The translations under genes and the position numbers were made by a program. From Candidatus Heimdallarchaeota archaeon (GTDB lineage: Archaea > Asgardarchaeota > Heimdallarchaeia > Hodarchaeales > Hodarchaeaceae), in the NCBI GenBank assembly GCA_048881705.1, contig JBHLSH010000067.1:1-22455 (forward strand): a stretch of DNA of 22,455 nucleotides. Reading direction: 5' to 3'. Positions 3,568 through 22,455 of the stretch are shown here, one piece after another. The notes under the pieces are model-generated. The model worked only from the letters and a program-made list of their open reading frames with translations, ran no database searches and was not told where the DNA came from. Positions within the stretch are counted from its first letter, which is position 1, and every line of letters begins with the position of its first letter.

Positions 3568-3839
3568 TATGTTTCATAGGTAGGGTAGGCGTTAAAAGTC
3601 AGCTTCTGGATTCATGAAAGATCAACGCATATCAAGCGGTATAATGTGTATATATTGCGGAGAAAGAAATCTATCTGCAGATCTCTAGAGGAGCGTTTTC
3701 ATCTTAGATAGACACGAAGGAAGTCGGCCAATTACTTATATCAAAGCATGAAAAGATTAAAAAGGCCGAGAGAATTGTCTAGTTTGACTTTCATAAATGC
3801 TAATCGCTTTTTCGCATAAACTTGGACTTGGGATTGGCA

Positions 3840-4592
3840 ATGGATTCCAGAAATGAAACTGAATCGCCAGTGGTGGGTATTGTGACCAGTATATTTACAG
3901 ATGCCGGACCCCAAGTCGTATTCAATTCAGCCAATGTTATTACGGACGATCAGGCCCTAAATCTCTCTGTGCGGGTCATGACTCTGCTTGGTGAGCAAAT
4001 AAGCGGTTCAAGTTCTGAGCTATTTGGACCTTTACCAGTTCCCTCGGATGAAAAGTACCTATGTCTTATATTCAGCTTCATTGTCGAAGCTGTTTTTACC
4101 ACGGACCCACGATTAAAAGAAAGACCGACGATCATTTGTATAATCTTCAAACGTTCGATGAGACGTGAAATATCACGGGCTCAAGGTCTTATCCAATCCT
4201 ATATTTCTCAACAAGTTACCGAGGATTTCAAAACCGAATCGGATTTAAAAGATGGCAAAAAGATGAGAGAAATCGATTATCATCTCTCGGCGCTAATCTC
4301 AAGTAATCCAGTGCAAATCTTCATTGTGCAAGGAAATACAGTTCAAGAACATATAGGAAGTCTGCATATCCCCCATGACGCCTTTGTGATTGCGGATCCC
4401 CAAAAGTCATTATTATACATCGTTTTTGAGAAATTTTTATCATCTGTTCGGAAACGAGAAATTGTTATTCTCGCTGATGGGATAAATGAGAAAAAATATC
4501 GGCGAAGGCTGAAAAAGGAAATCGTTGATTCGGAAGAATCAACCACACGCCTCTTGAACTATTACGGGCTCTCACTTCGGAACCAATATTAA
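3840..4592 (+). CDS. Hypothetical protein: N-terminal uDENN/longin-like domain plus C-terminal degenerate gelsolin-like domain
   Basis: ATG at 3840 preferred over TTG at 3822. VVGIVTSIFTDAGPQVVF resembles the NPRL2/folliculin/uDENN first strands (IFFSEFHPTLGPKI type), followed by LFGPLPVP..LIFSF..DPR. The C-terminal DAFVIADPQKSLLYIV..SSVRKR..A..IN segment fits gelsolin-domain spacing but lacks the WxG motif. Confidence 0.55.
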   Translation: MDSRNETESPVVGIVTSIFTDAGPQVVFNSANVITDDQALNLSVRVMTLLGEQISGSSSELFGPLPVPSDEKYLCLIFSFIVEAVFTTDPRLKERPTIICIIFKRSMRREISRAQGLIQSYISQQVTEDFKTESDLKDGKKMREIDYHLSALISSNPVQIFIVQGNTVQEHIGSLHIPHDAFVIADPQKSLLYIVFEKFLSSVRKREIVILADGINEKKYRRRLKKEIVDSEESTTRLLNYYGLSLRNQY

Positions 4593-4639: not shown

Positions 4640-5026
4640 ATGGTTTTAGAACCTGCTTATACCATCGAATTAGAAAGCTTTCTAGACCTGGTCAGATTAG
4701 TCACAAATTCTGGTCCAGAAAGACCATCGACAATCTTCAAGTGGTCTACTGAAGAAAATCGAGTTAATTATGGGTCGTTTGCGATTTTTCCTGGTTATTA
4801 TGACTATCATGGCTTGCCAGTCCTTTTTTATGTTACTCATGAAACCTCGATAGAGAAAATCGGAGAGAGTATTATCAGGTACGATCTTCAAGTGGCTGAA
4901 AAACAAATATCCTTTCTCTCGCATTTGCAAGAGCGTGACTTGGACAATACTCACACTGGGCTGGTTCGTTTCATTCCCATTGTAACTTTGAAACGACCGC
5001 CAAAGATATTCCCAAGTGGAAACTGA
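4640..5026 (+). CDS. Conserved archaeal hypothetical protein (resembles the TACK family often annotated 'cren protein')
   Basis: 128 aa. IELESFLDLVRL...YG..AIFPGYYDYHGLPVLFYV...FIPIVTL..PP matches my recollection of that family. Sits in operon position. Confidence 0.6.
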   Translation: MVLEPAYTIELESFLDLVRLVTNSGPERPSTIFKWSTEENRVNYGSFAIFPGYYDYHGLPVLFYVTHETSIEKIGESIIRYDLQVAEKQISFLSHLQERDLDNTHTGLVRFIPIVTLKRPPKIFPSGN

Positions 5027-5050: not shown

Positions 5051-5860
5051 ATGGAGAATATTTCACTTCTTGAAGGAGATATTGTCCAAATAGAAACCTT
5101 AACTTCTCGCAAACGACGATCTTGGATCTTCACTTTAAGCAAAGGAGGTAGCTTTTTTACCCATCTGGGTACGATTAACCATGATGACTGTATTGGACGG
5201 TCATTTGGCGATATTCTTAAGTTAACAGGAGGTCAAGTTCTCCTCCTGAAGCCTACCCCACGGGACCTAATACGGAACTTTCATTTGAAAACTCAAATCC
5301 TATACGAGGACGATTGTGCCGTTGCCTGTAGTTTGGCGGGAGTTACTCCCGGGATGCGGGTAGGAGAGGCAGGTAGTGGTTCAGGGGCACTAACCACATT
5401 TCTTGCTTCAACAGTACGACCTCGGGGACATGTCTATTCCTTTGATAATAACAAAGTCCACCTAGATAATGCACGAAGTAATGTGGTGAAAGCTGGGCTA
5501 GAGGAGTTTGTGACATTCACGAACCACGACGTTCTCGAACCACTGGAAGTTCGCGGACTCGATGCGTTTTTTCTTGATTTTTCTACCCCCTATAGGGCAA
5601 TCAAGACTGTTGCTCAATCATTAAGGGGTGGAGGTAGATTAATATGCTTTGTTCCATCCTGGGGACAAGTAGAACAGACTGTTGCCCAAATTCAAGAAAG
5701 TTCATACTTCGTTTTACGTGAAACTCTCGAGATCACCCGAAGAAACTTTGTTGTTGACCCTAAGAAGCATATTATGAGGCCTGTATTTCGAGACCTGGTA
5801 TATTCGGGAATTCTAATTCATGCCATCAGGATCATTCCAAGGAAAGAGATTTCAAGATGA
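5051..5860 (+). CDS. trmI: tRNA (adenine-57/58-N1)-methyltransferase, TrmI/Gcd14 family
   Basis: N-terminal THLGTINHDDCIG, TQILY..D, SAM motif GEAGSGSGALT, DAFFLD and P..GQV. Confidence 0.92.
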   Translation: MENISLLEGDIVQIETLTSRKRRSWIFTLSKGGSFFTHLGTINHDDCIGRSFGDILKLTGGQVLLLKPTPRDLIRNFHLKTQILYEDDCAVACSLAGVTPGMRVGEAGSGSGALTTFLASTVRPRGHVYSFDNNKVHLDNARSNVVKAGLEEFVTFTNHDVLEPLEVRGLDAFFLDFSTPYRAIKTVAQSLRGGGRLICFVPSWGQVEQTVAQIQESSYFVLRETLEITRRNFVVDPKKHIMRPVFRDLVYSGILIHAIRIIPRKEISR

Positions 5861-6765
5861 TTATCTTACCCGAACCGGTCTATGCCAAGTTTTTGCGGTT
5901 TGCATTGGAAAACGCGAATCCCTATGATCGTCCAAGGCAATGGAAAGAATGTATTGGGCTGATTCTAGGACGAATAGAAAACTCTATGATCTTTGTAACT
6001 GATATTATTCCCATGAATGCGGGAAATGCAGTTTACGTTGATATTAATGACTATGAAAAGGTTTTTTCTCTTGTGCCATTCAGTAAAATTGAGGCTGGTG
6101 AGGTAGTCGTTGGTTGGGCACATACACATCCTGGTCTCGGCTTGTTTTTCTCTGGAACCGACATCCGCACCCAATATGCTTACCAACAAATGCATCCGCT
6201 TGCATTTGGATTAGTACTGGATCCCATGAAGGTGACCTCTAACTTCGCCGGTTTTCGTATCTATCGTGTTGATTCTTCGGGATCTCGAGCCATTGAAGTC
6301 GAATACAATTTTGAAGTCGATTTTGATTTTACAACGACCAGAACGCAGTTAATTACAGAGCTATACCAAGTTCCACCGATTCCCACAACCCCAATTGTCC
6401 ACTCGAATACTGAGATCGAATGGAGAGATATGAGAATACGTATTGATGGGCCCGTTCTGGGATACGTTAACAAGGATTTTACGGTTAATATGGAGATTGG
6501 TCTACGGAAAAGCCAGTATTTGCGTTTGGAATATCAAATTAGCATGACCAACTTGATCTCCAGCCTGAAATTACCCAGCGAGCAAACAATGAAGATTATG
6601 TATCACGAAGCGATTAAATCTGGTAACCTTGCAGTTTTTTCAATGTATTCCAAAAACCCTGGCCGTGCATATCTTAAAATAGAAAAATTAAAAGTTATGG
6701 ATGGGAGGCGACACTCCCAAGAAATGCCCAACCTCACACTGGTCCTTGATATCCAAGATGAGTAG
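5857..6765 (+). CDS. Rpn11/CSN5-like MPN+ (JAMM) metalloprotease with a C-terminal beta-rich domain
   Basis: E31 (KECIGLILG) plus VVGWAHTHPGLGLFFSGTD at 6121-6162 form an intact E..HxHx7SxxD JAMM motif, followed by TQ..YQ..HP.AFGLVLDP. ATGA overlap with the trmI stop. Confidence 0.9.
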   Translation: MIILPEPVYAKFLRFALENANPYDRPRQWKECIGLILGRIENSMIFVTDIIPMNAGNAVYVDINDYEKVFSLVPFSKIEAGEVVVGWAHTHPGLGLFFSGTDIRTQYAYQQMHPLAFGLVLDPMKVTSNFAGFRIYRVDSSGSRAIEVEYNFEVDFDFTTTRTQLITELYQVPPIPTTPIVHSNTEIEWRDMRIRIDGPVLGYVNKDFTVNMEIGLRKSQYLRLEYQISMTNLISSLKLPSEQTMKIMYHEAIKSGNLAVFSMYSKNPGRAYLKIEKLKVMDGRRHSQEMPNLTLVLDIQDE

Positions 6766-6806
6766 GAGGGTCTACCAAATGTCCGAAAAGATAGTGGAAG
6801 TAAAAT

Positions 6807-7556
6807 CTATTTGTATCTCCGATCCCCATAGACCCCTAAAGCGATGAAAGCTATGAAAATGAAGCTCACAAAGAAAAAGAGGTAAAACAGAATCTCTGGA
6901 GGTGGAGGAAGCCCTGCAATGAATTCAAAAGTCATGTTTCTGGGGAAGATACTGTCTCGGGGAAGCAATACGGTTCCTTGGTAAGTGTGATACTTGACTC
7001 GAAAAACAAATTTATATGTGCCAAATGCAGGAAGAAGGAAGGAAGGAATGTCTAAAACTTCAGTTTTAGAAGCACCTGGTGTAAGAATCAATTCTTCGGG
7101 TTCCCCATCACGATATACTACGGCCCAAGATCTATTCAAGGTATCTGGCTCACCTGAACGCACTTGATATACATCAACTGCGAACTCATGCATAACCAAA
7201 CTCCTATTATCACCGATAATAGTTGTATAGCTCGCATTCACCCGAATTGTGGATCCATTAATTACCTGGGGGATTATGGTTGCTTCTTCTGGATTTAAAA
7301 CTTCACTCGTGAGCTTCTCCAATAAAACATATCGATTTCCAACCTTAACCGCGAGATTAATAAGCTGGATTTGTATACGGGGATCAACACGTTGAGTTAT
7401 TGCCTCAGGCGATGCCCCAACCTTCGCTGGCTGGAGTGTAGCATTTATACTATATGAAAATACAATAAATGCCAATAACAATATCTTTTGTACCTTTCGT
7501 TGGTTCATCAGCCGTTTCGACCCAGCAAACTGCGATAAAATTGTCTCAGTTACCAT
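6807..7556 (-). CDS. Type I membrane protein, putative translocon-associated protein alpha (TRAP-alpha/SSR1)-like
   Basis: Signal peptide (QRKVQKILLLAFIVFSYS..KVGA), beta-rich ectodomain with several NxS/T sequons, C-terminal TM (EILFYLFFFVSFIFIAFIALGVY) and a short basic tail. Aligns by eye with the TRAP-alpha luminal domain. The start may instead be the ATG at 7508. Confidence 0.6.
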   Translation of the reverse strand: MVTETILSQFAGSKRLMNQRKVQKILLLAFIVFSYSINATLQPAKVGASPEAITQRVDPRIQIQLINLAVKVGNRYVLLEKLTSEVLNPEEATIIPQVINGSTIRVNASYTTIIGDNRSLVMHEFAVDVYQVRSGEPDTLNRSWAVVYRDGEPEELILTPGASKTEVLDIPSFLLPAFGTYKFVFRVKYHTYQGTVLLPRDSIFPRNMTFEFIAGLPPPPEILFYLFFFVSFIFIAFIALGVYGDRRYK

Positions 7557-7636
7557 TGATTTAGTAAGGATCAGTTCAAACCCGTATTGTTGCTTTATTA
7601 TCAGTTTTGCTATAGCAAGGTGTACTGTTATGAAAA

Positions 7637-8668
7637 CTACTCTAGGATCATAAGTGGGTAGGATTCCCCGATCAAACTTTCAACCGTGTTTCGTATCGTG
7701 TTTTGAGCCTCGCGAATTTCCTTAAGGTCAAAAAATTTGCCCAATTCTTTCTCAATATAGTCTTCTGGAGCCGATTTCTCGTCCCTTGATATTATGAGGA
7801 AAATTTCTCTCTCGAGAGGCCCACGAGAGAATTTGGATCGCATCCGTGCTCCAATGATTTCGTAAGCGATCAAAATTTCTAATTGACGATTGTTTACCCG
7901 TTTGACTACCTCCTCGGTTAGAACCAGGACAGAAAAAATTTCATTAGCCCGATTAGTGGAATTCAAGGTAAATATGGGAATGTACACGGGCTCGAACAGG
8001 TTTTCTAAACTGGTCTGGAATAAAAAAGGGGCGACATTGATACGATATCGTGTTGCAATTTCTTTGGAATATTCTCTAAGGTTACTCTTGATATTGCCAA
8101 GCGCACGTTTGGCCTTTCTCAATTCATCCAAAAAAGTCAGACGTTCCGTTCTTACTTTCTCTTCAATCTGTAAAATTGGAATAATAGGAAGGCCTAGGCG
8201 TACTTTCATACGCATTTGGACCTCAATTTTCTCAACAAAGTCCTGATAAGGGGTGATTTCTTCGTTGTTTTTACGGATTGGATGAAGGCGCCTAATATCA
8301 TCAAATGCTGCATTTTCTGCTTCTTGGGTCGTATAGTTTTCGCACAATATGTATTTCAAGATATTACTAAAATATTCCATTCCAGTCTGAACAGCCATTG
8401 CATCTAGTGATTGAAAGATCGGAATCGAAAATGCAATAACCAACAATCGGATCTGATTTTCTATAATTTCTTGAAAACAGAATGGACTAATCTTTCGATT
8501 AGCTCGTTGAATCAGACCATTCACACCACAGAATCTAACCTGATCTATAACATCTAATAATTTTGGATGTTGGATTGCAACTCTTTCAAACTCTGTACCC
8601 ATCCATTCCTCAATCGTTAGTAGGAACTGAAATTGCCGATTAGGAGGGATACTTTCAAAGGAACTCAT
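7637..8668 (-). CDS. Hypothetical protein with a C-terminal catalytically degenerate M48/HtpX-like zincin domain
   Basis: ATG at 8668 has an AGGTGA SD (8674-8679); the track start GTG at 8677 lies inside that SD. LVLTEEVVKRVNNRQLEILIAYEIIG parallels the HtpX V.VT.GLL..L...ELEAVLAHELGH motif with both His residues lost. Confidence 0.6.
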   Translation of the reverse strand: MSSFESIPPNRQFQFLLTIEEWMGTEFERVAIQHPKLLDVIDQVRFCGVNGLIQRANRKISPFCFQEIIENQIRLLVIAFSIPIFQSLDAMAVQTGMEYFSNILKYILCENYTTQEAENAAFDDIRRLHPIRKNNEEITPYQDFVEKIEVQMRMKVRLGLPIIPILQIEEKVRTERLTFLDELRKAKRALGNIKSNLREYSKEIATRYRINVAPFLFQTSLENLFEPVYIPIFTLNSTNRANEIFSVLVLTEEVVKRVNNRQLEILIAYEIIGARMRSKFSRGPLEREIFLIISRDEKSAPEDYIEKELGKFFDLKEIREAQNTIRNTVESLIGESYPLMILE

Positions 8669-8745
8669 TTCGGTCACCTAATGGAATCTCCCCGCTGACC
8701 TAAAAGATTTCGGTGTTGTTTCTGGCAATAAAATTGCGATCCAAG

Positions 8746-9768
8746 TTAATACCGTTTACTTGCGTGTCGATAAGCGCTGCCAAAAAGGAAAAGGAAAATG
8801 CTGAAGGCCAGTAAAATAGCTGTTGATTGACTAATTGCAGCGAGATTTCCTGAAGCAAAGTTAACAATTTGAAATATAACAAGAGTTAACCAACCCCTTA
8901 TGCTTGTATCTCTCGTTGTTGTTAATCCTTTCCAATACCTTAGGATTAACATCAGAATTCCAATAACTACCGCTCCAATATGAATCCAATCCAAAATGAC
9001 GTCAAAGGATTCACGAAATATTAAGAACAAACTTTCAAGAGAGATAAATATCAGAATCGATAGTAATGTGATCAAACGATCAGGAACATTAACTGTGTAA
9101 TCGACCTGCTTTGCTCCTTCATAGATGAAATATATAACCCCACCTATCGTAGCGGCATCAGCTAGGATGAGCGCCGAGGTGTACAGAAGGTCTATATTCT
9201 CATTCCAGGTTATAAACAGTTGAGTCAAGAAATTAAAAATACCAGTATCGGGAGTCGATGCATCAAACCCGAAATAGAAGCCTAAAATGACGAATAAAGG
9301 CAGTGGAAGGTATAACAATGTAAGAAGAAGCGTTTTACGTTGCGTTGTGATACGAGAATCCGGATCTCTCCATCCAAGCAAATAGGCCGCAATAAAATAG
9401 CCCCCAAAAAGAGAAAGTACAGGAGTGATGATAGGAAAGAAAAAGATAATCCCGATTAAGAAGTTGAATCCGTAAAACGTTCTAATAGAGGTGGGTAAAC
9501 GCCAAACTTCAAAACCAAAGGTCTCGTACGCATCTGAAATCTGATAACGACGGCCTAACGTCCAAAGAAGAAAGGGAAACGACATAACCAGCGGTCCAAT
9601 CCCATATACAATAACATCGGACCAAATACGGAGGGCCGGAGTGTCAAAGAACCATATAACTCCATTACTGAAAATAAAAGAGAGAATGTAAAAGTAAATC
9701 GGAATTAGAACAAACTGCAGGATAACAATGAGTCTACCGTAATGAAGAGAGACCTCATAGTCACTCAT
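8746..9768 (-). CDS. Uncharacterised multi-pass membrane protein (~9-10 TM segments)
   Basis: 340-aa ORF of alternating long hydrophobic stretches and short charged loops. No family motif recognised. Confidence 0.75.
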   Translation of the reverse strand: MSDYEVSLHYGRLIVILQFVLIPIYFYILSFIFSNGVIWFFDTPALRIWSDVIVYGIGPLVMSFPFLLWTLGRRYQISDAYETFGFEVWRLPTSIRTFYGFNFLIGIIFFFPIITPVLSLFGGYFIAAYLLGWRDPDSRITTQRKTLLLTLLYLPLPLFVILGFYFGFDASTPDTGIFNFLTQLFITWNENIDLLYTSALILADAATIGGVIYFIYEGAKQVDYTVNVPDRLITLLSILIFISLESLFLIFRESFDVILDWIHIGAVVIGILMLILRYWKGLTTTRDTSIRGWLTLVIFQIVNFASGNLAAISQSTAILLAFSIFLFLFGSAYRHASKRY

Positions 9769-9794
9769 AACATCATTTCCAAATCTTTTTCTCT

Positions 9795-9818
9795 AACGGG
9801 ATTTAAACGGGGTTTAAA
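9795..9818. promoter_or_regulatory. 11-bp tandem direct repeat containing two TTTAAA TATA-like boxes in a divergent promoter
   Basis: AACGGGATTTA (9795-9805) and AACGGGGTTTA (9806-9816). TTTAAA at 9802-9807 and 9813-9818, between divergent genes starting at 9768 (-) and 9897 (+). Confidence 0.4.
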
Positions 9819-9896
9819 AATATATTTTCCACGGAGCTCATTCTTGATAACGATAAACCTAGCTGGTTTCATAATGTCATTTTGGAGGTTTTATTG

Positions 9897-10208
9897 ATGG
9901 TTGAAGCTAATGAAAGCGAGAATTTTCCATATAGGAGTGATTATTACCATTTAATAAAAGGAAAGACGATTTCGCGGCGTGGGCGATGGTGGACGGCTGC
10001 CCTTCTAGTTCAGCATGTCAATAATGCGGATAAGCGGATAGTTGTCATCCAACGGTGGCAAAAACGCAATCGGGCAGATCCCGATGCGGATGGAAAGATG
10101 TCAAGCTACTGGGCTCCTATGAAAGCTTTTACATTAAACTCCAGCCGAACTTGGGAAAGTTTGAAAGAAGTGGTGGAGAATTGGCTTTCAACTAATGCCT
10201 GGGAATAA
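9897..10208 (+). CDS. Small basic protein, possible PC4/Whirly-like nucleic-acid-binding fold
   Basis: GGAGGT SD at 9884-9889 points to the ATG at 9897. Trp/Arg-rich beta-strands followed by a C-terminal helix (F.L.S..TWESLKEVVE), similar to the PC4 pattern. Confidence 0.5.
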   Translation: MVEANESENFPYRSDYYHLIKGKTISRRGRWWTAALLVQHVNNADKRIVVIQRWQKRNRADPDADGKMSSYWAPMKAFTLNSSRTWESLKEVVENWLSTNAWE

Positions 10209-10227: not shown

Positions 10228-11559
10228 TCAAGTAATCTCAATGTATTCGTAGGCCTGACGGGTTGATTCAAAACCATAGTGGATTTTTTGATAATCCTGG
10301 CGGAATTCTGCAACTCGTTTTGCCATTTCGCGAGGATCTTTCTGATCTATTAAAACCGCCTTAAATAGTTCTGCAATCTCTTCCATTTCGCTCTCCTTCA
10401 TGCCCAGTCGTGTGATCTCTTGGGTACCTATACGGATTCCGCCAGGGTTCCGATAATTACGCTTCTCAATGACATCCCATGGGAGGAGATTTCGATTTGC
10501 CACAATGTGAGATCGTTCCAGCAGTTGTTCCACATCAGCCCCAAGCCCAATAGATCCCTGGAAATTGCTAATATCGACGAGTAACGTATGGGATTCAGTA
10601 AATCCCTTATCCGGACATACGACTTGGAATCCTCTTTCGTACAGTGCTTGTCCCAGAGCTTTCGCATTTCTGATCACTTGTTCTGCATAGGCTTTGCCGA
10701 ATTTTTTAAACTCGGCGGCGGCAACCGCAAGGCCAGCGACATGCATCAAGTGGTGGTTAGAAGTCATGCCAGGGAATGCAGCCGCTTTGATCTGATCCAC
10801 CAACTCTTCTCTTGCACTTATTACAAGGCCTTTCTGGGGTCCAGGGAATGTTTTATGGGTTGACATTGTCATGGTATCTGTTCCCTCCCGCAAGGGATCC
10901 TGAAACTTTTTAGCCGCTATTAGTCCCGCCACATGGGCCGCATCGTAGTTCACATGGGCACCAACATCGTGGGCTGTTTTAGCCAACTCCTTTACAGGAT
11001 GAGGAAACAAAAAAACACTAGCTCCGAATTGAACCAGCTTGGGTTTTTTCTCCTGAATAGCTTTGATTGAAGCGTCAACGTCAATATTTAGACCATATCT
11101 GTCAAATGGAAGATAGTCTACGTCCAATCTTGACACAGCGCCAGCTGTTCCTCCAATAAAGGCCCCTGTTTTTGCTTTGAGAGGTCCAGAGCTGATATGT
11201 CCCCCCACAGGAATCGAAATTGCCAACATCTTGTCGTTAGCTTGTGCAAAAGCTGTGTAAACAGTTAGGTTAGCTACGACCCCCGAGATAGGACGCGCAT
11301 CCACAAATGGCGCATCAAAAAGATCTCGTAGAAGCTTCAAACAAAGCTCTTCCAATTCATCGAAGTATTGGTTTCCTGGGTAGACTCGCTCGCCTATCCA
11401 CCCCTCTGCGTATCTATGGGCCAGGTCACTTATTGCAGCCTCACGAACTGCTGGTGTTGTTAAATTCTCACTGGCAATAAGGGGAATAGCACTTTTCCAG
11501 TACTCGTGATGCCTTAGTAGGATATTCTTTACGCGTAAAAACCCTGGGTCGTCATGCAT
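10228..11559 (-). CDS. glyA: Serine hydroxymethyltransferase (archaeal type)
   Basis: LIASEN, RYAEG, ELE..C, GGHISS, YDAAHVAGL, PLP-lysine motif TMSTHKTFPGPQKG, SNHH and GIRIGTQE. ATG at 11559 follows a GGTGGT SD (11567-11572); the track start is TTG at 11574. Confidence 0.97.
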   Translation of the reverse strand: MHDDPGFLRVKNILLRHHEYWKSAIPLIASENLTTPAVREAAISDLAHRYAEGWIGERVYPGNQYFDELEELCLKLLRDLFDAPFVDARPISGVVANLTVYTAFAQANDKMLAISIPVGGHISSGPLKAKTGAFIGGTAGAVSRLDVDYLPFDRYGLNIDVDASIKAIQEKKPKLVQFGASVFLFPHPVKELAKTAHDVGAHVNYDAAHVAGLIAAKKFQDPLREGTDTMTMSTHKTFPGPQKGLVISAREELVDQIKAAAFPGMTSNHHLMHVAGLAVAAAEFKKFGKAYAEQVIRNAKALGQALYERGFQVVCPDKGFTESHTLLVDISNFQGSIGLGADVEQLLERSHIVANRNLLPWDVIEKRNYRNPGGIRIGTQEITRLGMKESEMEEIAELFKAVLIDQKDPREMAKRVAEFRQDYQKIHYGFESTRQAYEYIEIT

Positions 11560-11727
11560 TTGTGTTACCACCAATAGTTACCGTTGACAAACTAAAATTC
11601 GCTAAAATATTAAAGAATTCTTAACTTGAGTTTAACTGTACTGAAATTAGGCCACGTATCATTTCATGGTCGGTACCTCTGTAAATCAGTTAAAATTTTC
11701 CCCCACATCCTTCTCTACTAAGTATGC

Positions 11728-11742: not shown

Positions 11743-12897
11743 ATGCCGATGAAAACTCAATTATATGACTATCACAAGGAAAACGGTGATATGATCAACT
11801 TTGCGGGATTTCAAATGCCCGTGATGTATTCATCCATTCAAACTGAACATATGGCTGTACGAAACAGCGTGGGACTCTTTGATGTCTCCCATATGGGACG
11901 TATGTGGATAGAAGGCTCCGATGCAGACGTTTTTATAAATTATTTGACCCCAAGAGACCTTAACAAAACATTAGTAGGACGAGCTTCATATACATTCATG
12001 TTAAACGAACAAGGCGGGTTTAAAGATGATTTGGTTTTTGAACGGATTGAGGAGAATAAGTGGTTACTGGTTTGGAACGCTGGTAATCTTCGTAAAATTG
12101 AACTATGGATTCGAACCGTCTTGGAAGCTATTAATAAATTCTCTCAGGTGGATGTGAGTATCAATAATATTTCCAACTCCTCCGCAATGTTTGCATTACA
12201 AGGGCCATTATCTCCTAGATTACTTTCTACTAAATTCACAGAGTTAAATCCGCCATCACCATGGAATGTGGTAGAGACGACCCTTGACAATATAAAAATA
12301 ATACTTTCTGGTACAGGATACACTGGCGAGAGAGGTTATGAAATTATTGTCTTTGATACCACGCCTGATAATCCCAGCAACGCGAGAAAAGTATGGGATT
12401 TCTTATTGGAGCCAAAGAATGCTGACATATCTTCCATCCCGTGTGGACTTGGCGCTCGCGACTCTCTTCGTCTGGAAGCTGGATATTGTCTTTATGGTAA
12501 CGATATTAATGAGAATCTCACCCCTGTTGAAGCTGATTTATTTTTTCCACCTTTTATCCATATGAACGGGCCGGATTTCGTTGGAAAGCAGGAACTAAAA
12601 CGTCTACAAGATAAAGATCCTGATCTTATCCGAATTGGTTTGAAGGCCGCTAAAAAAGGACCAAGCCCGAGGTCTGGAGTGAATCTTTATCATAATACAA
12701 AAAAAATTGGCCATATAACTTCAGGCGGGTTTTCGCCTCTGCTTCAGATAGGTGTTGGAATGGGGTACGTGTATCCAGAGGTAAGCGATCCAGGAACCCT
12801 AATTCAATACGAAATACGGGGAAAATTCCATGATGCTCAGGTGGCTACATTTCCACTCTTTGATCCTCAGAAGTTCGGAAGCAAGCGTCAGACCTAA
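11743..12897 (+). CDS. gcvT: Glycine cleavage system aminomethyltransferase (T protein)
   Basis: FAGFQMP..Y.SI..EH.AVR..VGLFDVSHMG, GYTGERGYE, GLGARDSLRLEAG..LYGND and GHITSG.FSP. Confidence 0.96.
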   Translation: MPMKTQLYDYHKENGDMINFAGFQMPVMYSSIQTEHMAVRNSVGLFDVSHMGRMWIEGSDADVFINYLTPRDLNKTLVGRASYTFMLNEQGGFKDDLVFERIEENKWLLVWNAGNLRKIELWIRTVLEAINKFSQVDVSINNISNSSAMFALQGPLSPRLLSTKFTELNPPSPWNVVETTLDNIKIILSGTGYTGERGYEIIVFDTTPDNPSNARKVWDFLLEPKNADISSIPCGLGARDSLRLEAGYCLYGNDINENLTPVEADLFFPPFIHMNGPDFVGKQELKRLQDKDPDLIRIGLKAAKKGPSPRSGVNLYHNTKKIGHITSGGFSPLLQIGVGMGYVYPEVSDPGTLIQYEIRGKFHDAQVATFPLFDPQKFGSKRQT

Positions 12898-15800
12898 TCT
12901 TCATCCTTTTTCTTTGCCTTCTCTCCAGTTTTACCTGAAATCCCTCCTAATTCGGATAAAGCATCTGAAAACATATCAGTAAGGCTTGGAGGTTGGACTG
13001 CAGGGGCCTCTGATAGCTTTTCCTCTGGCACCTTATCGGGAATCTCTTCATATGAAACCTCGGGGATACTAAAAATATCTTTGTCACCGGACATTTCATC
13101 TTCAGATAACGCATCCATAATTGAGGTTACCGGCAATGAAGTTGTTTGTGATGAAAATGGACTCTCACCGGGCTCAGCCTGCGTTTCTACGATCTCCTCG
13201 GGCGGAATACTAACTTCCTCGGCATGTTTTCGTGCCGATTCTTCTTCGTGAATGAGGATTTCCAGTGGAGTAAGGTCGGGAATAGCTTCTGCAGGAGGTG
13301 CCTCAATTGACGGGCTTGTTGTTTCTTTTTCTTCCTCAGGAATCGGTTCTGCTTCTTTTCGAATCAGACGACCAAATACGTCTACCTTCCATTCCTCGCT
13401 GGAAACCTGTGGCTCTTCCAGTGTGCCGAGATCTGGAATTGGTTCGGAATCCATTGAAGGTGAATCCGAAGCTACCGGAGCAAACAAGCTTTCAACATCT
13501 TCATCTGTAAGACGAACAGGTCTATCCTCAGCGGGGGTTTGATCTTCAATTCTATGCTCTTGGGGAAATAGAGACATAGCTTCTTCTTGAGACAGAGAAG
13601 TCTGCGTGGATGTTTCAATTTTATCTTCCGGAGGAGGCAATATACTACTATCAACCTCTGGAATCTCTGGTTCAGGGCTGTCAGAGACCTCAGGTACACT
13701 TTTCATGACGATTGATTCTTCTACGATCCCTGCTACCTCTTCCGCTACTTCTTCCTTTAGGAACTCTTCCGAAAGTTCCGAGGATTCAGGTGGGACTTGA
13801 AGAGATGGCGACAGGAATTCGGATGTTTCCACAAGCTCGGGAGGCGCGACAAATTCTTCGCGAATTTCAGCGGCCTCTGGTGCCGTTATCTCTTCCTCTT
13901 CGACTGATTCGTAAGCTAAACGCTTTTTCTCTAGCTCAGTGTATTCTTTTTTATATTTCCTAGCCTTAATTTCAAATTCAGAAAGATAATTTTCAACTGA
14001 TGCTTCGAGATCGGCATCGTTGCTCCTTTTTGCATATCTTGATAAAAAGACCAAGATTCCGCCCAATTTCTCCCCAGTGTTAATCATACCCCCCAATCGA
14101 CATGCATAATCAACGTAGGATTTGACCAGCGTTACGTTATCAGCGGCTATACCTTCTTTCAGTAGGCGTACAACCGTATTAAAGAGTAATTCAAAGTCCT
14201 CGACGCCTTCGAGCTTTTCTAGTGCCTTCTGGAAGGAGGATCCCGCCTTTTGATCCTTTATCCTCATCAAAAACTCCGTCATTTTTGCTTGCAAAAGGGC
14301 CGCATGCTTGTTGGCATTATATTTCTCACATAAGGTAATACCTCGTTGGAGTGTTCGAATGGCCTGACGCGGTGAAGCAACCTCATCAGCAAGGCTAGTG
14401 TAAACGTTTAAAACTCCTTCAAAGTCATTTATACTTCGATAAAAGTCTGAGGCCTGATATGCATATTCTGAAGCGAGATCAGGATTTTCTGCCGCCACAT
14501 ACAGTGTAAATTTCTCTGCAATTTTCGCAGCAAGTAGTCTCCCCTCATGACCGAACCTTTCCTGATTGGTTATCGTCCGAATAATACGATCTGTGAATTC
14601 ACGAGCGCCCTCAAGAAGTGTTCGAGAAATGAGGCCTTTAATAAAACCAAAAGCGCTCGGCAGCATATCAACCAATGACTTCTCGGTGTTTTCCAACATA
14701 CCAGACATTAAACGCGAGGCCGATGAAATCAAATCCGCTTCCAACAGGATAGATGTATATTTTTCCGAAAGTCTGTCCCCCTCAACCCCAGATCCCTCCA
14801 TATAAACCGACATGACAAAATCAACCAGGTTTTCACCCATTTCTTCTGATAAACTCCCAGATTTTATCAGTTTATCATAAAAATTCTCTGAGAAGGCTGT
14901 AAATTCATCAAAGGAGGGAGATAGGGTCTGTTTAATAGTATCTATCACCTCTGGATCGGGATGTTCTTCTACGAGGGGGATCAGATATCTGGAAGCAATT
15001 TTCTTAAAATCGTCACTATCCTCCCTTAATTTCAATATCCTCCTGAGGATATTCAGTGCGTTCGCCTTATCAGATTCGTAGATCTGGTTAAAGACCATTT
15101 GCAGGGTTTTTAGCGATTCTGATCCCTTGCCAGCCTCCTCCAAGAGCTTGGCCATTTCCAGAGTGAATCGAGTTATTGCTACGCTGTCTCCCCGCTCCCT
15201 TACTTTGTCCAGGTATTTCTTTACAGAAGCGATCACCAAAGGATATCGCTTATGTCCCCTTCCAAAACGCAGAATTAGATCGGTCATACGATCTGAATTT
15301 TCATACTGAGCTTTTTCAATGAATTTGTTTCGAACGCTTTCTAAATATCCCACCACTTCATCGATCGACCCTAGACTTTCTAAATACCGAGCATTCTGGA
15401 CACTAAAGATATAGGCGTCCTGATACCGTTCCTGTTCGATTTGTTTATTTATGATTCTTGAAACAAGGTCAATGGCTTTCTGATAGTCTTCCTTACTCTC
15501 TAACTCCTTCAGAATTTCATCAGTAATCTTCTGGGCCAAATCAATCGATTTTTCTAGGATTTCCTCCTGGAAGACGAGTAGACGTTCGATCGCGCCTTCG
15601 GGGTCCCCCATGGCACGATATGTTTCGGATATTTTATGTGTATACTTTTCTACAAGGTCAAAACGATCAGTTTCGTTTAATAGGTGTTCAACAAATCGTG
15701 AGAGATTATCAATTGCCCGCGTGTAATCTTTATTCTTTAGCTGCAAGGCCTCGAGCTGATCAAGCATATAGGCGGCGTGATCAACCGCGTTAAGTTTTAA

Positions 15801-18314
15801 TAGGTCCTTGACAAAATCTAAGAGCAGCTCATAATTCACAACTTCGGTTTGGAACATCAGGGACGCCAAATACTTCATGTAGTCCCAAGCCATGTTGTGT
15901 TCGCCAACCGCCTTGAGCTTAGTGATGAATTTTATACAGAACTCGGAAACCTCTGTAATTTTTTGTTCATCCAACAAACGGGCGAGTTCTAGGTTTGCCA
16001 TCTCTTGAGCAGTCAAGATCGCCTTACTGCTCAATAATTCGTCAACATAATTGAATATAATTTCTTGCCGTTCCTTGGGATCGCGTATTGTTTGTAGAGC
16101 TTTCTGAATATACGATTTAGAATGTGCACGGTCACCTAATTTTCCAAAGAGATCACCTAAGGTCAACTGTTTCTCGATCCGCTTGGTTTCCTCGTTTGCA
16201 TATGCTTGATCAATGAGACTTTCAGCGAATTTCAAGTAATTCCTTGCAGCTTCGGCCTCTCTCAATGTGATAAGCCCTCTAACAATGTCTAAACTAAAGT
16301 CAACCGCATCATCGACTCTTTTCAGCTCATAAAAGAGTTTAATCGCCTGATTGCCGAGATTACAGGCTTTCCTGTAATTGGTCGCATCTAGAAGGTATCG
16401 AGAGGCCTCCAATGCAACTTCTAGGGCCTTTTCTCTTTTATTTTGGTTTTCAGCCGTTAGAATGAACCGATCCACATATTTCGTGTATGTGTCCTTGTTC
16501 TTTGACTCCTTCAGGAACTGTAGTGTCTTCTCAATAGACTCCATTAGTTCAAAGTATTGCTTCTGCTCTTCCTGAACTTCGAACGCGACGTCAAGTAAGT
16601 ATACAATGTCTTTGTTATAAGTCTCTCTCTGCTCACGAGGAATTGTTTCTGGTTCGGCCTTGCCAAGCTGTTCTATTGCAAAGTGGGCGTATCGGACAGC
16701 ATTTTCCCATTGAACTGTTTGCAGTCTAGCCTTTTTGTAAAGATCGATCTGCTTTTTTCCTAGGTTAAGTACGGGAGCAATAACGTCAAGGGAGCCCTCT
16801 TCAATTAAATAGCGATCCAAGAGCAATCCACAAAGATTTGCTGCAATGAGGAATTTTTCTTGCTCTGCTAAGGGATCTAATGATGACTCGACAAACTCGT
16901 ATGCAATATTTTTATCTACCTCCAGGAGGTCTTCAGTCAGTTGATTTCGAAATTTACCTGCCTTAGAAGTCTTTTTTTGGCGGTCATAATAGTGAATGAG
17001 CTTTTTTCCAAACTGAAGAAGCCCAGTTGCATTTTGTTCCTTCCTTGCTCTTTCAAACAGAACCTCTGTACCTTTAACAGCTTCTTTCAAGTTTCCCTCT
17101 TTCTCATATCCTTCGATAACCTTTAGGAAATGGCCCATGGCTACATTGAGAACAATATCGCTGATAGGCCGTTGTGCTAGTTGTTCCATGACCTTTTGGA
17201 TCTTCTCGCTTTCATCATACAGTATACTAAAGGAGATCTGTGGCACATTCTGGTTGATTAATTTCGCAATTGCATCGTGGTCTATCTCAACTTCCTGCAA
17301 ATCGGAAGAAGTTCCGTCCCTGTACTTGAAAAGAGCGAACCAACGATCTAATTGTCTATAAACCACAAATATAGTCCTCCCAGATTTTTCAATTGGTATT
17401 TCTTTTATGGGTATTGGTTGACCTTTGCTTACAAAGTCGGTTAACTCCGCAACGAACCGGTCTAGATCATTTGCATTTTTGAATTTCGAAGTATCGAATG
17501 CGGAAAGATCAACCATGGCAAGTTCGGCCTCTGCAACTTCAAACTCCTTTGCCCGATCCGCTGTTACGCCTTCGGTCATATCACTGCTAGTTGTTTCAAT
17601 TTCCCCTATTTCTTCCAAGAATTCTCCAGGGTTTTGAATCGTTTTCTCGATCTTTTCAGCTGACTCATATATGGCAGAAAAGGAAAGAAACTCTATTCCA
17701 GCCTTGGTGATCATGTTAACAAGATCGTCTTGATTCACAGAATCCCTGGTGTATTTTTTCCTAACCACCTGTTTTTCTCCGTCAAACAACACCACAGCGT
17801 ATTTCCCATCTTTAGTATGATAGATCCCTGCTTCCCCGTTACGCGAATAGGGCATTTCAAACTTGTGTAATAGCTTATCACCATATTCAACAAGTTGCTT
17901 TTTGACAGGTACCGAAGCTACTTGTGGTGATGGAGTTCCGACCATCTCTGCAGGATGCTTTTCCTTTGTAATCTTTTTAGCCTCTTGAATTGGGGGCTGC
18001 GGTTTTTCGGATGTGACTGAACGACTATCATCACCTAGATCTAGCTCTCTAAACGCTTTAATATGTTCTAATAATAGGTCAGCTACATCGAAAATAGCGG
18101 AAAAACTGAAAAATTCAATTTCTGCCTCCGAAAGTAATTCTACAAGCGTATCCTGGACGAAAGGTCCTGTGAGCGTGCTCGTTTTGATGAGACGTTCATT
18201 CTGATAAAATTTCAGTACATATTCATCACGCTTAAGACTTTCGTGAATCTCACATTCCACGCCAGACGTGGACGGAAGTTCCAGTCTAACTTGTTTTTCT
18301 TCCCGGGTTGCCAT
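12894..18314 (-). CDS. Giant (~1806 aa) scaffold-like protein: three N-terminal repeats of an ~80-aa beta/alpha domain, a long TPR/SNAP-like alpha-solenoid and an acidic Pro-rich disordered tail
   Basis: Uninterrupted 5.4-kb ORF; ATG at 18314 preferred over TTG at 18368. Helical-repeat periodicity from about 17170 to 13914. E/D/P/S-rich tail at 12894-13913. Stop codon overlaps the gcvT stop. Confidence 0.85.
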   Translation of the reverse strand: MATREEKQVRLELPSTSGVECEIHESLKRDEYVLKFYQNERLIKTSTLTGPFVQDTLVELLSEAEIEFFSFSAIFDVADLLLEHIKAFRELDLGDDSRSVTSEKPQPPIQEAKKITKEKHPAEMVGTPSPQVASVPVKKQLVEYGDKLLHKFEMPYSRNGEAGIYHTKDGKYAVVLFDGEKQVVRKKYTRDSVNQDDLVNMITKAGIEFLSFSAIYESAEKIEKTIQNPGEFLEEIGEIETTSSDMTEGVTADRAKEFEVAEAELAMVDLSAFDTSKFKNANDLDRFVAELTDFVSKGQPIPIKEIPIEKSGRTIFVVYRQLDRWFALFKYRDGTSSDLQEVEIDHDAIAKLINQNVPQISFSILYDESEKIQKVMEQLAQRPISDIVLNVAMGHFLKVIEGYEKEGNLKEAVKGTEVLFERARKEQNATGLLQFGKKLIHYYDRQKKTSKAGKFRNQLTEDLLEVDKNIAYEFVESSLDPLAEQEKFLIAANLCGLLLDRYLIEEGSLDVIAPVLNLGKKQIDLYKKARLQTVQWENAVRYAHFAIEQLGKAEPETIPREQRETYNKDIVYLLDVAFEVQEEQKQYFELMESIEKTLQFLKESKNKDTYTKYVDRFILTAENQNKREKALEVALEASRYLLDATNYRKACNLGNQAIKLFYELKRVDDAVDFSLDIVRGLITLREAEAARNYLKFAESLIDQAYANEETKRIEKQLTLGDLFGKLGDRAHSKSYIQKALQTIRDPKERQEIIFNYVDELLSSKAILTAQEMANLELARLLDEQKITEVSEFCIKFITKLKAVGEHNMAWDYMKYLASLMFQTEVVNYELLLDFVKDLLKLNAVDHAAYMLDQLEALQLKNKDYTRAIDNLSRFVEHLLNETDRFDLVEKYTHKISETYRAMGDPEGAIERLLVFQEEILEKSIDLAQKITDEILKELESKEDYQKAIDLVSRIINKQIEQERYQDAYIFSVQNARYLESLGSIDEVVGYLESVRNKFIEKAQYENSDRMTDLILRFGRGHKRYPLVIASVKKYLDKVRERGDSVAITRFTLEMAKLLEEAGKGSESLKTLQMVFNQIYESDKANALNILRRILKLREDSDDFKKIASRYLIPLVEEHPDPEVIDTIKQTLSPSFDEFTAFSENFYDKLIKSGSLSEEMGENLVDFVMSVYMEGSGVEGDRLSEKYTSILLEADLISSASRLMSGMLENTEKSLVDMLPSAFGFIKGLISRTLLEGAREFTDRIIRTITNQERFGHEGRLLAAKIAEKFTLYVAAENPDLASEYAYQASDFYRSINDFEGVLNVYTSLADEVASPRQAIRTLQRGITLCEKYNANKHAALLQAKMTEFLMRIKDQKAGSSFQKALEKLEGVEDFELLFNTVVRLLKEGIAADNVTLVKSYVDYACRLGGMINTGEKLGGILVFLSRYAKRSNDADLEASVENYLSEFEIKARKYKKEYTELEKKRLAYESVEEEEITAPEAAEIREEFVAPPELVETSEFLSPSLQVPPESSELSEEFLKEEVAEEVAGIVEESIVMKSVPEVSDSPEPEIPEVDSSILPPPEDKIETSTQTSLSQEEAMSLFPQEHRIEDQTPAEDRPVRLTDEDVESLFAPVASDSPSMDSEPIPDLGTLEEPQVSSEEWKVDVFGRLIRKEAEPIPEEEKETTSPSIEAPPAEAIPDLTPLEILIHEEESARKHAEEVSIPPEEIVETQAEPGESPFSSQTTSLPVTSIMDALSEDEMSGDKDIFSIPEVSYEEIPDKVPEEKLSEAPAVQPPSLTDMFSDALSELGGISGKTGEKAKKKDED
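17178..18296 (-). repeat. Three protein-level repeats at the N-terminus of the giant ORF
   Basis: R1 18051-18296 (..QDTLVELLSEAEIEFFSFSAIFDVAD..), R2 17628-17876 (..QDDLVNMITKAGIEFLSFSAIYESAE..), R3 17178-17420 (..HDAIAKLINQNVPQISFSILYDESE..). Each begins with a [LMI]P-x-x-x-G-type strand region. Confidence 0.8.
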
Positions 18315-18538
18315 CTCTAAAAACTCTATGACAAATTTAACTGTACAGGTGGTTCGAATAGATTTCAAACTTCAATGAATAAAAAGAAGTCTCTTTATTT
18401 TTCCTTGCCAGATTCTTATCCTCAAAACATGTAATGTTATGGGGGAAAGATGAAAAAGGTTTCTATATCATATTAATGGGCATCATTTCACCCAGTTACG
18501 ATCATGTGGTGAGTAAAAAGCTAGAATTTAAACCATTA

Positions 18539-21109: not shown

Positions 21110-21694
21110 CTAGATTTCTTCTTCCTCCTCAAGTTGTTTTTGTCTTAAATAGATCCTTTGTCCCTTCCTAGTCAGCTGATGTCGTTTAGCTGGTCTTCCT
21201 CGTCTTCTTTTTTTCGATTTTACCTTCACAGGAAGCGGTATGTCTGAACCTGCTTCTGTAGATGGGGTAGGAGGGGGCGAGCTTCTTTGAACCTCTATCA
21301 ATCCCATTTCGGAGAGCTCCTTAAGTTCTTTATTTAACGTTCGGGTGGAGACCTGAGCCCTTTCGCTCAATTCAGCTACATTAACGGTCGGATCCTTGTT
21401 AAGGTGATGGAGAATTGCTCTTCGGGTACGTCTTAACTCTCCTAGTTCAGGTTGTGTTCGAATATACCTTTCAAGTACTATTTGACCCCGCTCTGTTAAA
21501 ATCAATGAGTTAGAATGTGGAGGTTCCCGAGTGATGAACCCCACCAGCTCTAACTCCTTTAAACGGCGATAAATAGTCGCAGTAGTGAGCTCAGACCTTA
21601 ATTGGTGGTGTATGTCGCTGCTCGTCTGGTTAGGATTCCTACTTATATACTCCAAGATTTGCCTCGTACCTTTCGCCGCCAAAACATCAAACAA
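21110..21694 (-). CDS. Tandem winged helix-turn-helix DNA-binding protein with a Pro-rich/basic wing insertion
   Basis: Two wHTH units (TTATIYRRLKELELVGFI..LTERG; VSTRTLNKELKELSEMGLI..LTRKG). TTG start with a GAGGTG SD at 21702-21707. KKRRRGRPAK in the second wing. Confidence 0.8.
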   Translation of the reverse strand: MFDVLAAKGTRQILEYISRNPNQTSSDIHHQLRSELTTATIYRRLKELELVGFITREPPHSNSLILTERGQIVLERYIRTQPELGELRRTRRAILHHLNKDPTVNVAELSERAQVSTRTLNKELKELSEMGLIEVQRSSPPPTPSTEAGSDIPLPVKVKSKKRRRGRPAKRHQLTRKGQRIYLRQKQLEEEEEI

Positions 21695-21714: not shown

Positions 21715-22455
21715 CTATTCATCATGATCTCCAGGAGCCATCTGATTAGATATCGTTTGTTGCATGGCAGGAGTCTCTGTAACATTTGATTCACGTCGAA
21801 CCATTCCTGAACCTGAACGTCGCTGACCTTTAAGTATATCAATGTGCTCTTTGGCAGCATAAAGGTGAAGCGGAACTCCTTCATATTGAATACAAATCCC
21901 TTGCCATTTTTGGTCAGAAAACCGATATAATTGGCCAGCTCCAGTGGCATCATCCTTGGTTATTTTTATCTTAGAAAATTCCTTCCGAAGATATTGATCC
22001 AAATCAGAGGGTATTTTTCCTTTGGTCTCTTTTTCCTTTAGAAACATCCAATCTGCTAAAAATCCTTTCAGCACTAATTCACTGAATTGAGGCCATAAGT
22101 TGGGTGATCCATAAATCTCCACCCCCAATATTTTTCCCCCATAAAATACAACCAATCCGACCTGGCCCTTGATCTGAACTGCTGGCGTAAGCTTTTCTAA
22201 AAGCTCAGACAAATTCTTTTCTTCTGTGTATGCGTGCTCCTGAATTTCTCTGAATGATCTTGTGGGTGCCTCAGCTTGCCCATACCCTAAAACAGAGGAT
22301 GCAGCAGCTATAGAATCCCACATGATCCCTTGAGTAGTTTGATTGGTCGAAATGTTTGCCATATGGCTAGCCAACCGCGTTTTGGCTGATCTAAATTTGT
22401 GGGATGTCGCCGCGCCTCGCGAGTTGCGATAAGACCAACGAGATTGTTCAATACA
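21715..22455 (-). CDS. ARPP-1/DUF6569 family protein, 5' end outside the window
   Basis: The frame is open to the window edge and reads CIEQSRW..F.SA..(R)LASHM..Q..QG.MWD.I..., then GQVGLVVFYGGKILGVEIYGSP.LW......L..F..D, matching ARPP-1 family motifs (C[VI]EQ.RW, Q..VW, GQ.G.....G....E.F). Confidence 0.7.
   Translation of the reverse strand, partial: CIEQSRWSYRNSRGAATSHKFRSAKTRLASHMANISTNQTTQGIMWDSIAAASSVLGYGQAEAPTRSFREIQEHAYTEEKNLSELLEKLTPAVQIKGQVGLVVFYGGKILGVEIYGSPNLWPQFSELVLKGFLADWMFLKEKETKGKIPSDLDQYLRKEFSKIKITKDDATGAGQLYRFSDQKWQGICIQYEGVPLHLYAAKEHIDILKGQRRSGSGMVRRESNVTETPAMQQTISNQMAPGDHDE

Follow-up and report, generated by a model that had tools for sequence, protein, structure and literature searches.

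A 1,806-residue protein restricted to a few Asgard lineages, with a repeated N-terminal domain, a 27-hairpin TPR-like solenoid and a motif-bearing acidic tail, as a candidate scaffold

Contig JBHLSH010000067.1 of Candidatus Heimdallarchaeota archaeon (Hodarchaeales) carries, within the 22,455-nucleotide (nt) stretch analyzed here and referred to as the window, a giant minus-strand gene whose 1,806-residue product we take, on balance, for a cytoplasmic scaffold or interaction hub that is non-enzymatic and confined to a few lineages. We favor this reading because no catalytic or defense domain was found in the protein and because all three of its regions are of a macromolecule-binding kind, namely, an N-terminal head of three homologous domains on linkers, a continuous tetratricopeptide repeat (TPR)-like alpha-solenoid of 27 helical hairpins, and an acidic C-terminal tail that holds conserved short motifs. 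The family to which it belongs is restricted to a few Asgard lineages and is not described in the searchable literature.

The gene lies in the longest frame of the open reading frame (ORF) list, a minus-strand open frame at 12894..18368. Its start codon is the ATG at 18314, from which the product begins MATREEKQ..., and since this M1 is invariant across the aligned homologues (28, or 29 proteins in all), the gene spans 12894-18314 and encodes 1,806 amino acids (aa). A search of the genome of origin gave a single match to it. No membrane segment was found in the 1,806-aa protein, the highest 19-residue Kyte-Doolittle mean being 1.35, and the N-terminus is polar and not signal-peptide-like. Pfam, NCBIfam, and PADLOC searches of the whole protein returned no family above cut-off and no enzyme or defense family. 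These searches also bear on the idea that the protein is the sensor or scaffold of a STAND/TPR-type defense or signaling system, which we consider extremely improbable: neither an NTPase (NACHT, NB-ARC, or AAA) nor an effector domain was found with Pfam or NCBIfam, PADLOC gave no match, and the gene is single copy, stably syntenic and universal in its genus, unlike patchy defense islands.

The overall plan agrees with what a sequence-only reading of this DNA had described, that is, a cytosolic protein of ~1800 aa without signal peptide or transmembrane segment, composed of three beta-rich globular N-terminal repeats, a continuous helical-hairpin solenoid and a ~340-aa disordered acidic tail. 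AlphaFold2 models, composition and alignment all uphold this three-part architecture. The ~85-aa domain of the head is named the SFS domain here, after its signature SFS-x-[IL]-[FY]-[DE]; "repeat HMM" below denotes the hidden Markov model of this domain, and pLDDT the predicted local distance difference test score of the models. The parts of the gene are as follows.

12894..18314, minus strand: whole gene, 1,806 codons and a stop at 12894-12896 (ORF list, translation, invariant M1)
18045..18299, minus strand: SFS copy 1, residues 6-90 (AlphaFold2; repeat HMM E 4.7e-28; signature QD-x(11-13)-EFFSFSAIFD)
17886..18044, minus strand: linker 1, residues 91-143, Pro/Lys-rich, weakly conserved (column identity 0.29-0.50), pLDDT ~30
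17619..17885, minus strand: SFS copy 2, residues 144-232 (AlphaFold2; repeat HMM E 1.1e-32; signature GIEFLSFSAIYE)
17424..17618, minus strand: linker 2, residues 233-297, acidic, net charge -11, pLDDT 27-40 at 234-263
17166..17423, minus strand: SFS copy 3, residues 298-383, the most divergent copy (AlphaFold2, repeat HMM, hhalign; signature VPQISFSILYDE)
13923..17165, minus strand: TPR-like alpha-solenoid, residues 384-1464, with 54 helices in 27 hairpins of ~40 residues each
12897..13922, minus strand: acidic tail, 342 residues (1465-1806), assigned from composition and conserved in short blocks only

In the AlphaFold2 model, the head consists of three four-strand, two-helix (bbbb-aa) domains at residues 8-94, 147-232, and 301-380, modeled with pLDDT of ~80-94 and joined by linkers with pLDDT below 50; the C-terminal end of linker 2 forms a conserved helix (281-296) just before SFS copy 3. 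The three repeats are mutually homologous, with hhalign E values of 5e-16 between copies 1 and 2 and of 6e-6 and 2.5e-6 for copy 3 against copies 1 and 2, respectively. Comparison of the SFS domain with known folds gave no clear match, and a head profile searched against PDB sequences returned chance-level rows only; the nearest small modules of four strands plus helix were the PUR repeat (PURA, 8cht_B), the CCT-like domain of WNK1 (5g3q_B), and the RGC domain of IQGAP (3iez_B). The SFS domain defines a domain family without earlier description.

The solenoid was modeled as an unbroken series of 53 helices of ~17 residues (residues 415-1465, mean pLDDT 86.7), to which the head model adds two helices at 384-424, for a total of 27 hairpins. 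Tandem antiparallel helix pairs are arranged in a continuous superhelix, which places this region in the TPR-like alpha-solenoid class. In homologues of only 22-27% identity, the solenoid remains collinear from end to end (profile position 1 to ~1,030), which shows that the rod of 27 hairpins is kept as a fixed unit and is not a shuffling repeat array.

The tail has an isoelectric point of 4.05 and a net charge of -69; it contains 91 Asp+Glu but only 22 Lys+Arg residues, as well as 39 Pro and 59 Ser+Thr. In the alignment of 29 proteins, it shows many indels and weak conservation outside short blocks, and both composition and alignment indicate that it is probably disordered; its last 72 residues had a pLDDT of ~52 when co-folded with the solenoid. 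At least six conserved short motifs and a Lys-rich end are found in this region, as listed below, along with the further conserved blocks PELVxT and DEEFVSxIKxF.

13560..13598, minus strand: tail motif 1, residues 1573-1585, consensus ALSDxEIxSLFS (29-protein alignment, regular-expression count)
13476..13514, minus strand: tail motif 2, residues 1601-1613, repeating motif 1, consensus ALSExExDSLFxP
13356..13397, minus strand: tail motif 3 (tryptophan-acidic), residues 1640-1653, consensus EEWEVDxFGRLWKK, 7 invariant residues
13257..13283, minus strand: tail motif 4, residues 1678-1686, consensus TPDLxPLE (alignment)
13041..13079, minus strand: tail motif 5, residues 1746-1758, consensus DIFxVPEVxYxEI, with P1751, V1753, and Y1755 invariant
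12897..12992, minus strand: tail motif 6 plus the Lys-rich end, residues 1775-1806, consensus PDLADLFSDALSELGxISG, 11 invariant residues

Motifs 1 and 2 share the form ALS[DE]xE[IV]xSLF, and the invariant residues of motif 3 are W1642, V1644, D1645, F1647, G1648, R1649, and L1650. Motif 6 is the most widely kept, since LFSxALSxL and the Lys-rich end are also present in the distant members P0052, P0054, P0057, and P0058. Judged by the aligned sequences, such a block pattern is that of short linear motifs in a disordered region. Within the genome of origin, the giant gene alone has the SFS signature and motifs 3 and 6, so that the tail motifs are not a docking signal shared with other proteins of this genome. 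A match of the PEVxYxEI type in a 737-aa AAA-ATPase-like ORF of the same genome was taken as chance. Counts of LSDxExxSLF motifs and of SFS copies do not go together: the motif is missing from distant members in which the domain occurs 4-6 times.

The family was delimited with several searches. A word-indexed search retrieved 47 clusters that are 45-55% identical over the full length (1,806-1,941 aa when complete) and one further cluster at 91% identity, all from Asgard metagenome-assembled genomes labeled mostly Hodarchaeales or Hodarchaeota. Distant members share 22-27% identity, span 1,376-2,317 aa, and include HeimC3_02910 of Heimdallarchaeota LC_3. When 1.84 billion representatives were searched exhaustively in HMMER with a profile of 1,180 positions, built from the head and most of the solenoid, only 41 proteins reached E <= 0.001, all of which belong to the giant family or are fragments of it, and every source label is Asgard, mostly Hodarchaeales; neither generic TPR proteins nor eukaryotic proteins were among them, the eukaryote coverage of this library being unchecked. 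Among 400 Asgard genomes, the family was found in 30, including 21 of the 21 genomes of the window's genus (always as a single copy), both genomes of a second family of the order, all five of one distant family (in which one homologue is labeled Sifarchaeia), and one more. It was not found in the other 370, among them other families of the same class (e.g., 0/31); since many of the scanned genomes are 70-95% complete, single absences are soft, and the pattern is clear at the level of families. Literature searches (Asgard alpha-solenoid, Hodarchaeales tetratricopeptide) returned no paper with the LC_3 locus tag HeimC3_02910 and none on the giant family.

These distributions help to weigh the simplest alternative, according to which this is an ordinary large TPR protein with a generic co-chaperone-like or assembly role and the head and tail are minor lineage decoration. 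The fold is indeed generic, many other TPR proteins are encoded in the genome, several homologues are named "tetratricopeptide repeat protein" by NCBI, and weak matches to the Pfam model TPR_14 occur in 15 of 28 family members (best E 2.8e-5). In the giant protein itself, no Pfam TPR model reached the gathering score, the sole TPR match being TPR_8 (E 0.05; 14.2 bits, with the cut-off at 25.7), and the solenoid segment alone matched no Pfam family at E <= 0.01. However, conservation of the head and tail equals that of the solenoid (alignment-window identity is 0.7-0.85 for the SFS domains and 0.78 for the C-terminal motif), the order of hairpins is fixed even at 22-27% identity, the gene is single copy throughout the genus, and the family profile does not cross-match generic TPR proteins. 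We therefore regard this alternative as unlikely, although it deserves some weight. The sequence-only reading had itself proposed that its scaffold would fall if the solenoid matched generic, widespread TPR proteins and the architecture were not conserved in Asgard relatives. The first point applies by fold class but not by sequence, given that the profile recovers only proteins of its own family, and the architecture is conserved throughout the genus and in a few other lineages but is missing from most of the Asgard genomes scanned.

Structural comparison placed the solenoid among many proteins at once. Foldseek matched it to 445 PDB chains at E <= 0.001, headed by Ski3/TTC37, a subunit of the intraflagellar transport complex IFT-A, Ctr9, TFIIIC, clathrin heavy chain, and separase; further likenesses in fold are with LGN/Pins, spliceosomal HAT proteins, SNAP, and kinesin light chain (KLC). 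The template modeling (TM) scores of the top rows are only 0.10-0.15. Because any long TPR/HAT array yields such matches, they point to no particular relative, and the modeled fold class is a generic long-period TPR. The top rows, Ski3/TTC37 (9g8r_B, 4buj_B), IFT-A (8fgw_D, 8bbg_D), and Ctr9 (7dkh_A), have E values of 1e-10 to 1e-8 over ~1,000-1,290 columns, and like the giant protein, these are single-chain TPR superhelices of ~1,000 or more residues, which in their case form a non-enzymatic platform. They nevertheless differ from it in head and tail, share no sequence link with it, and give TM-scores of 0.11-0.15, so that the match is indistinguishable from convergence among repeat proteins. 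The TPR domains of LGN/Pins and KLC are long-period (40-42-residue) peptide-binding domains of 6-8 hairpins, compared with 27 in the giant protein, which has no detectable sequence similarity to them and no GoLoco, coiled-coil, or motor-binding parts; the large root-mean-square deviation (~16 A) is due to differing superhelical paths. In view of the models, LGN and KLC resemble the giant protein in fold, and possibly in mode of action, without being members of its family.

The earlier proposal of kinship with coats, tethers, karyopherins, alpha-SNAP, or proteasome/COP9 scaffolds thus found no support in these comparisons, and descent from, or an early form of, a specific eukaryotic trafficking or proteostasis scaffold (coat, tether, SNAP, Ski3-like, or PCI/Rpn-type) now appears quite improbable. 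At TM-scores this low, many unrelated TPR/HAT proteins score alike, and the signal is that of the repeat fold. The solenoid profile, searched against PDB sequences, retrieved only designed repeat proteins at E > 0.1; the models contain no beta-propeller, PCI winged helix, or appendage domain; no eukaryotic protein is among the 41 HMMER matches, obtained from a library whose eukaryote coverage is unchecked; and the absence of the family from 370 Asgard genomes likewise speaks against such descent.

Several candidates were considered individually, Ski3 and SNAP being rejected at the level of sequence. Homology to Ski3/TTC37 was not detected with the solenoid profile against PDB sequences, which include the Ski3 chains, or in the exhaustive search. 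For alpha/gamma-SNAP (Sec17, PF14938), a six-frame search of the genome of origin at E <= 1 gave 25 matches elsewhere, none of them in the giant gene or on contig C67, and at E <= 0.01, the model matched none of the 28 family members; PF14938 is not specific at the thresholds used, as it also matches in 10 of 14 control genomes (above cut-off in 2). The stretch that had been quoted as alpha-SNAP/TPR-like (residues 1280-1305) is not where SNAP aligns. Protocoatomer proteins, the beta-propeller plus alpha-solenoid coats and nuclear pore scaffolds, share with the giant protein a beta-containing N-terminus followed by a long alpha-solenoid, and one of the Foldseek matches is clathrin heavy chain (E 7e-7, TM 0.10). 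Membership in this group was rejected since there is no propeller, the N-terminal 383 residues forming three separate alpha/beta domains on disordered linkers. Likewise, no C-terminal winged helix caps the solenoid in the manner of the PCI-domain scaffolds of the proteasome lid, COP9, and eIF3.

The SFS domain is not confined to the giant protein. Within the giant family, the repeat HMM counts 3 to 6 copies per protein, and an SFS profile built from 35 domain copies (A5) hits the same 30 of the 400 Asgard genomes as the family itself. In most genomes of the genus, a fourth match falls in a stand-alone ORF of ~100 aa, found in the source genome at G000:C83:2465-2770 (-) (L024:2465-2770), with orthologues in L025-L028 that are 55-61% identical. 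Where the SFS signature would stand, this paralogue has GIEFYALTGPYD, and its C-terminus is extended by a basic stretch (HKHFKKKGLLRRFLGK in relatives); its neighbor genes are not conserved among the orthologous loci compared. Two near-identical clusters from soil metagenomes (P0084 and P0122, loci L029 and L030) encode 287-aa proteins in which a Ras-family domain (PF00071, E 1.3e-10, above cut-off) is joined to one SFS domain (125-209). This is the only other SFS architecture found with a named partner domain; the P-loop and switch motifs of its Ras domain look degenerate by eye, and the contigs gave no clue to host organism or function. Finally, P0072 (L031:2747-4024) is a complete ORF of 425 aa with two SFS domains followed directly by an acidic tail, which bears LSDEEIDDLFSP and SFSDVLSALS motifs and a Lys-rich end, without a solenoid. 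It is known from a single contig, and an assembly artifact is possible. A search for more fusion architectures among longer proteins yielded nothing beyond family members and fragments. The stand-alone paralogue, the Ras fusion, and the rod-less protein, each represented by few sequences, show that the SFS domain behaves as a mobile module and that head and tail may operate together without the rod.

As an interaction hub, the giant protein could work as follows, all binding steps being ones that we infer. The SFS domains would be beads on flexible linkers of 55-65 residues and, probably, a multivalent capture module. Small GTPase-type proteins are the only candidate ligand with evidence, which is thin: the Ras-SFS fusion and the 49 matches to the Ras-family model in the source genome (E <= 1e-5), mostly in ORFs of 180-230 aa. 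A large complement of small GTPases is typical of Asgard archaea. The rigid 27-hairpin superhelix, with its 40-residue period, would offer a long surface for the binding of peptides or proteins, and the tail motifs and Lys-rich end might recruit partners, dock onto the protein's own solenoid, or both, docking leading to auto-inhibition or head-to-tail assembly. In LGN and KLC, extended peptides lie in the inner groove of the TPRs, and motifs within the same chain act as auto-inhibitors; KLC recognizes tryptophan-acidic cargo motifs and is inhibited internally by an LFP-acidic one. In the giant protein's tail, the acidic SLF-x-P and EEWEVD motifs resemble these KLC motifs, an analogy that may serve as a lead.

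Docking of the tail on the rod was explored by co-folding the solenoid (residues 540-1465) with tail residues 1735-1806. The interface score, ipSAE, was 0.35 (runs 0.35, 0.32, and 0.35) compared with 0.00 for the best control, with a contact agreement of at least 72% between runs and a partner pLDDT of at least 50, for a verdict of "weak support". The mark applied was passed by 58 of 80 solved complexes and by 2 of 110 mismatched pairs, and at an ipSAE <= 0.60 by 7 of the 80 complexes and both passing mismatches; as our own alignments were used, these calibration counts are only rough for the present case. The co-fold raises the odds of tail-to-rod docking only slightly.

Several points weigh against the scaffold reading. 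"Scaffold" is partly a default label for a large protein without a catalytic domain. The LSDxExxSLF and tryptophan-acidic motifs are missing in distant subfamilies that have 4-6 SFS copies, LC_3-type members have a different C-terminus, and f28-type members (~1,380 aa) are wholly without a tail, which is therefore not essential to the family core. By the calibration above, more co-fold passes of this kind are wrong than right, except where the guess was already a likely one, and the Ras-SFS proteins comprise just two near-identical soil-metagenome clusters with degenerate-looking GTPase motifs. On the other side, motifs 3 and 6, with their 7 and 11 invariant residues, are kept like folded parts, and this conservation of tail sequence supports a hub function. 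A bolder version, in which the SFS array is a multivalent small-GTPase receptor, the solenoid and tail recruit partners, and the tail docks in the TPR groove, would make the protein an independently evolved GTPase effector or tether of Hodarchaeales, analogous to eukaryotic tethers and coat adaptors; we consider it a speculative proposal with a small chance of being right.

The genomic context of the giant gene was also compared. A gene of the cyclase family on the same strand ends upstream at 18539, leaving a spacer of ~225 nt, and the 3' end of the giant gene overlaps the end of the convergent GcvT gene (11743-12897, +) by 4 nt; because of this spacer and the convergent neighbor, the giant gene appears to be transcribed as a separate unit. 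GcvT directly adjoins it on the 3' side in six loci (the window, L002, L003, L010, L011, and L012), including those of homologues with 22-27% identity; in five of these loci the two genes converge, and 0-160 nt separate their 3' ends. GcvT lies one gene away in L015. Serine hydroxymethyltransferase (SHMT), which adjoins GcvT in the genus (10228-11574, -, in the window), is found two genes upstream of the giant gene in the distant locus L014. These associations could suggest that the protein works with one-carbon/glycine metabolism by organizing or regulating GcvT/SHMT. We consider this very improbable: convergence in five of six loci excludes co-transcription, a tight 3'-3' junction can last because breakpoints are rare there, no feature of the protein suggests folate or lipoyl binding, and the f28-type locus L013 has neither GcvT nor SHMT near the giant gene. 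Moreover, a longer unrelated block (membrane proteins, JAB, and TrmI) is also kept, as expected of general synteny.

This block, at 5051-10208 beyond GcvT in the window, contains orf9882 (108 aa), orf8746 (340 aa, without a Pfam match), orf7637 (346 aa), one variable gene, and a JAB/MPN gene (302 aa). It recurs in LC_3 (L010:14847-20003) at 25-38% identity in mixed orientations and in L012:14487-20186, where TrmI is also present and orf7637 has no tblastn match. Unrelated genes are interspersed, and in L002 and L011 the block is broken. The JAMM neighbor that the sequence-only reading had linked to the giant gene is indeed nearby and partly conserved, lying 4.5-7 kb from it in the distant relatives L010 and L012, but the mixed orientations and the broken block do not uphold a functional link, so that the neighborhood argument has little weight, though some. 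We read the neighborhood as retained synteny and not as an operon. The GcvT linkage may persist through inertia, since breakpoints can seldom fall between convergent 3' ends that almost abut, or through a functional link.

Other features of the window were recorded in passing. The genes for a TrmI/GCD14-type tRNA methyltransferase (5051-5860, +) and the JAB/MPN protein (5857-6765, +) overlap by 4 nt, which suggests translational coupling, and they are close together in L012 too. For six ORFs, Pfam gave no match at E <= 0.01 (3822-4592, +; 4640-5026, +; 6807-7556, -; 7637-8677, -; 8746-9768, -; and 9882-10208, +), and these include the two that had been called "uDENN-like" and "TRAP-alpha-like". 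At 3-1937 (-) lies the archaeal marker FttA/aCPSF1, a transcription-termination nuclease with KH_TffA, metallo-beta-lactamase, Beta-Casp, and RMMBL domains. A tandem winged-helix regulator (21110-21694, -) is located downstream of an ARPP-1 domain gene (21715-22455, -) that runs off the window; an ARPP-1 gene is also near the giant gene in L003. An Rfam search of the window found zero RNA families.

The giant family is among the largest conserved proteins of Hodarchaeales, the archaea currently placed closest to eukaryotes, and its plan, in which folded modules strung on flexible linkers precede a very long solenoid and a motif-bearing disordered tail, is common in eukaryotes and unusual in prokaryotes. 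On its own, the protein is not proof of a coat or tether precursor, since repeat scaffolds converge easily; similarities between such scaffolds may be convergent (bioRxiv 10.64898/2026.10.28.762692). If its partners are found, the giant protein would provide a handle on how protein-interaction networks are organized in Hodarchaeales cells.

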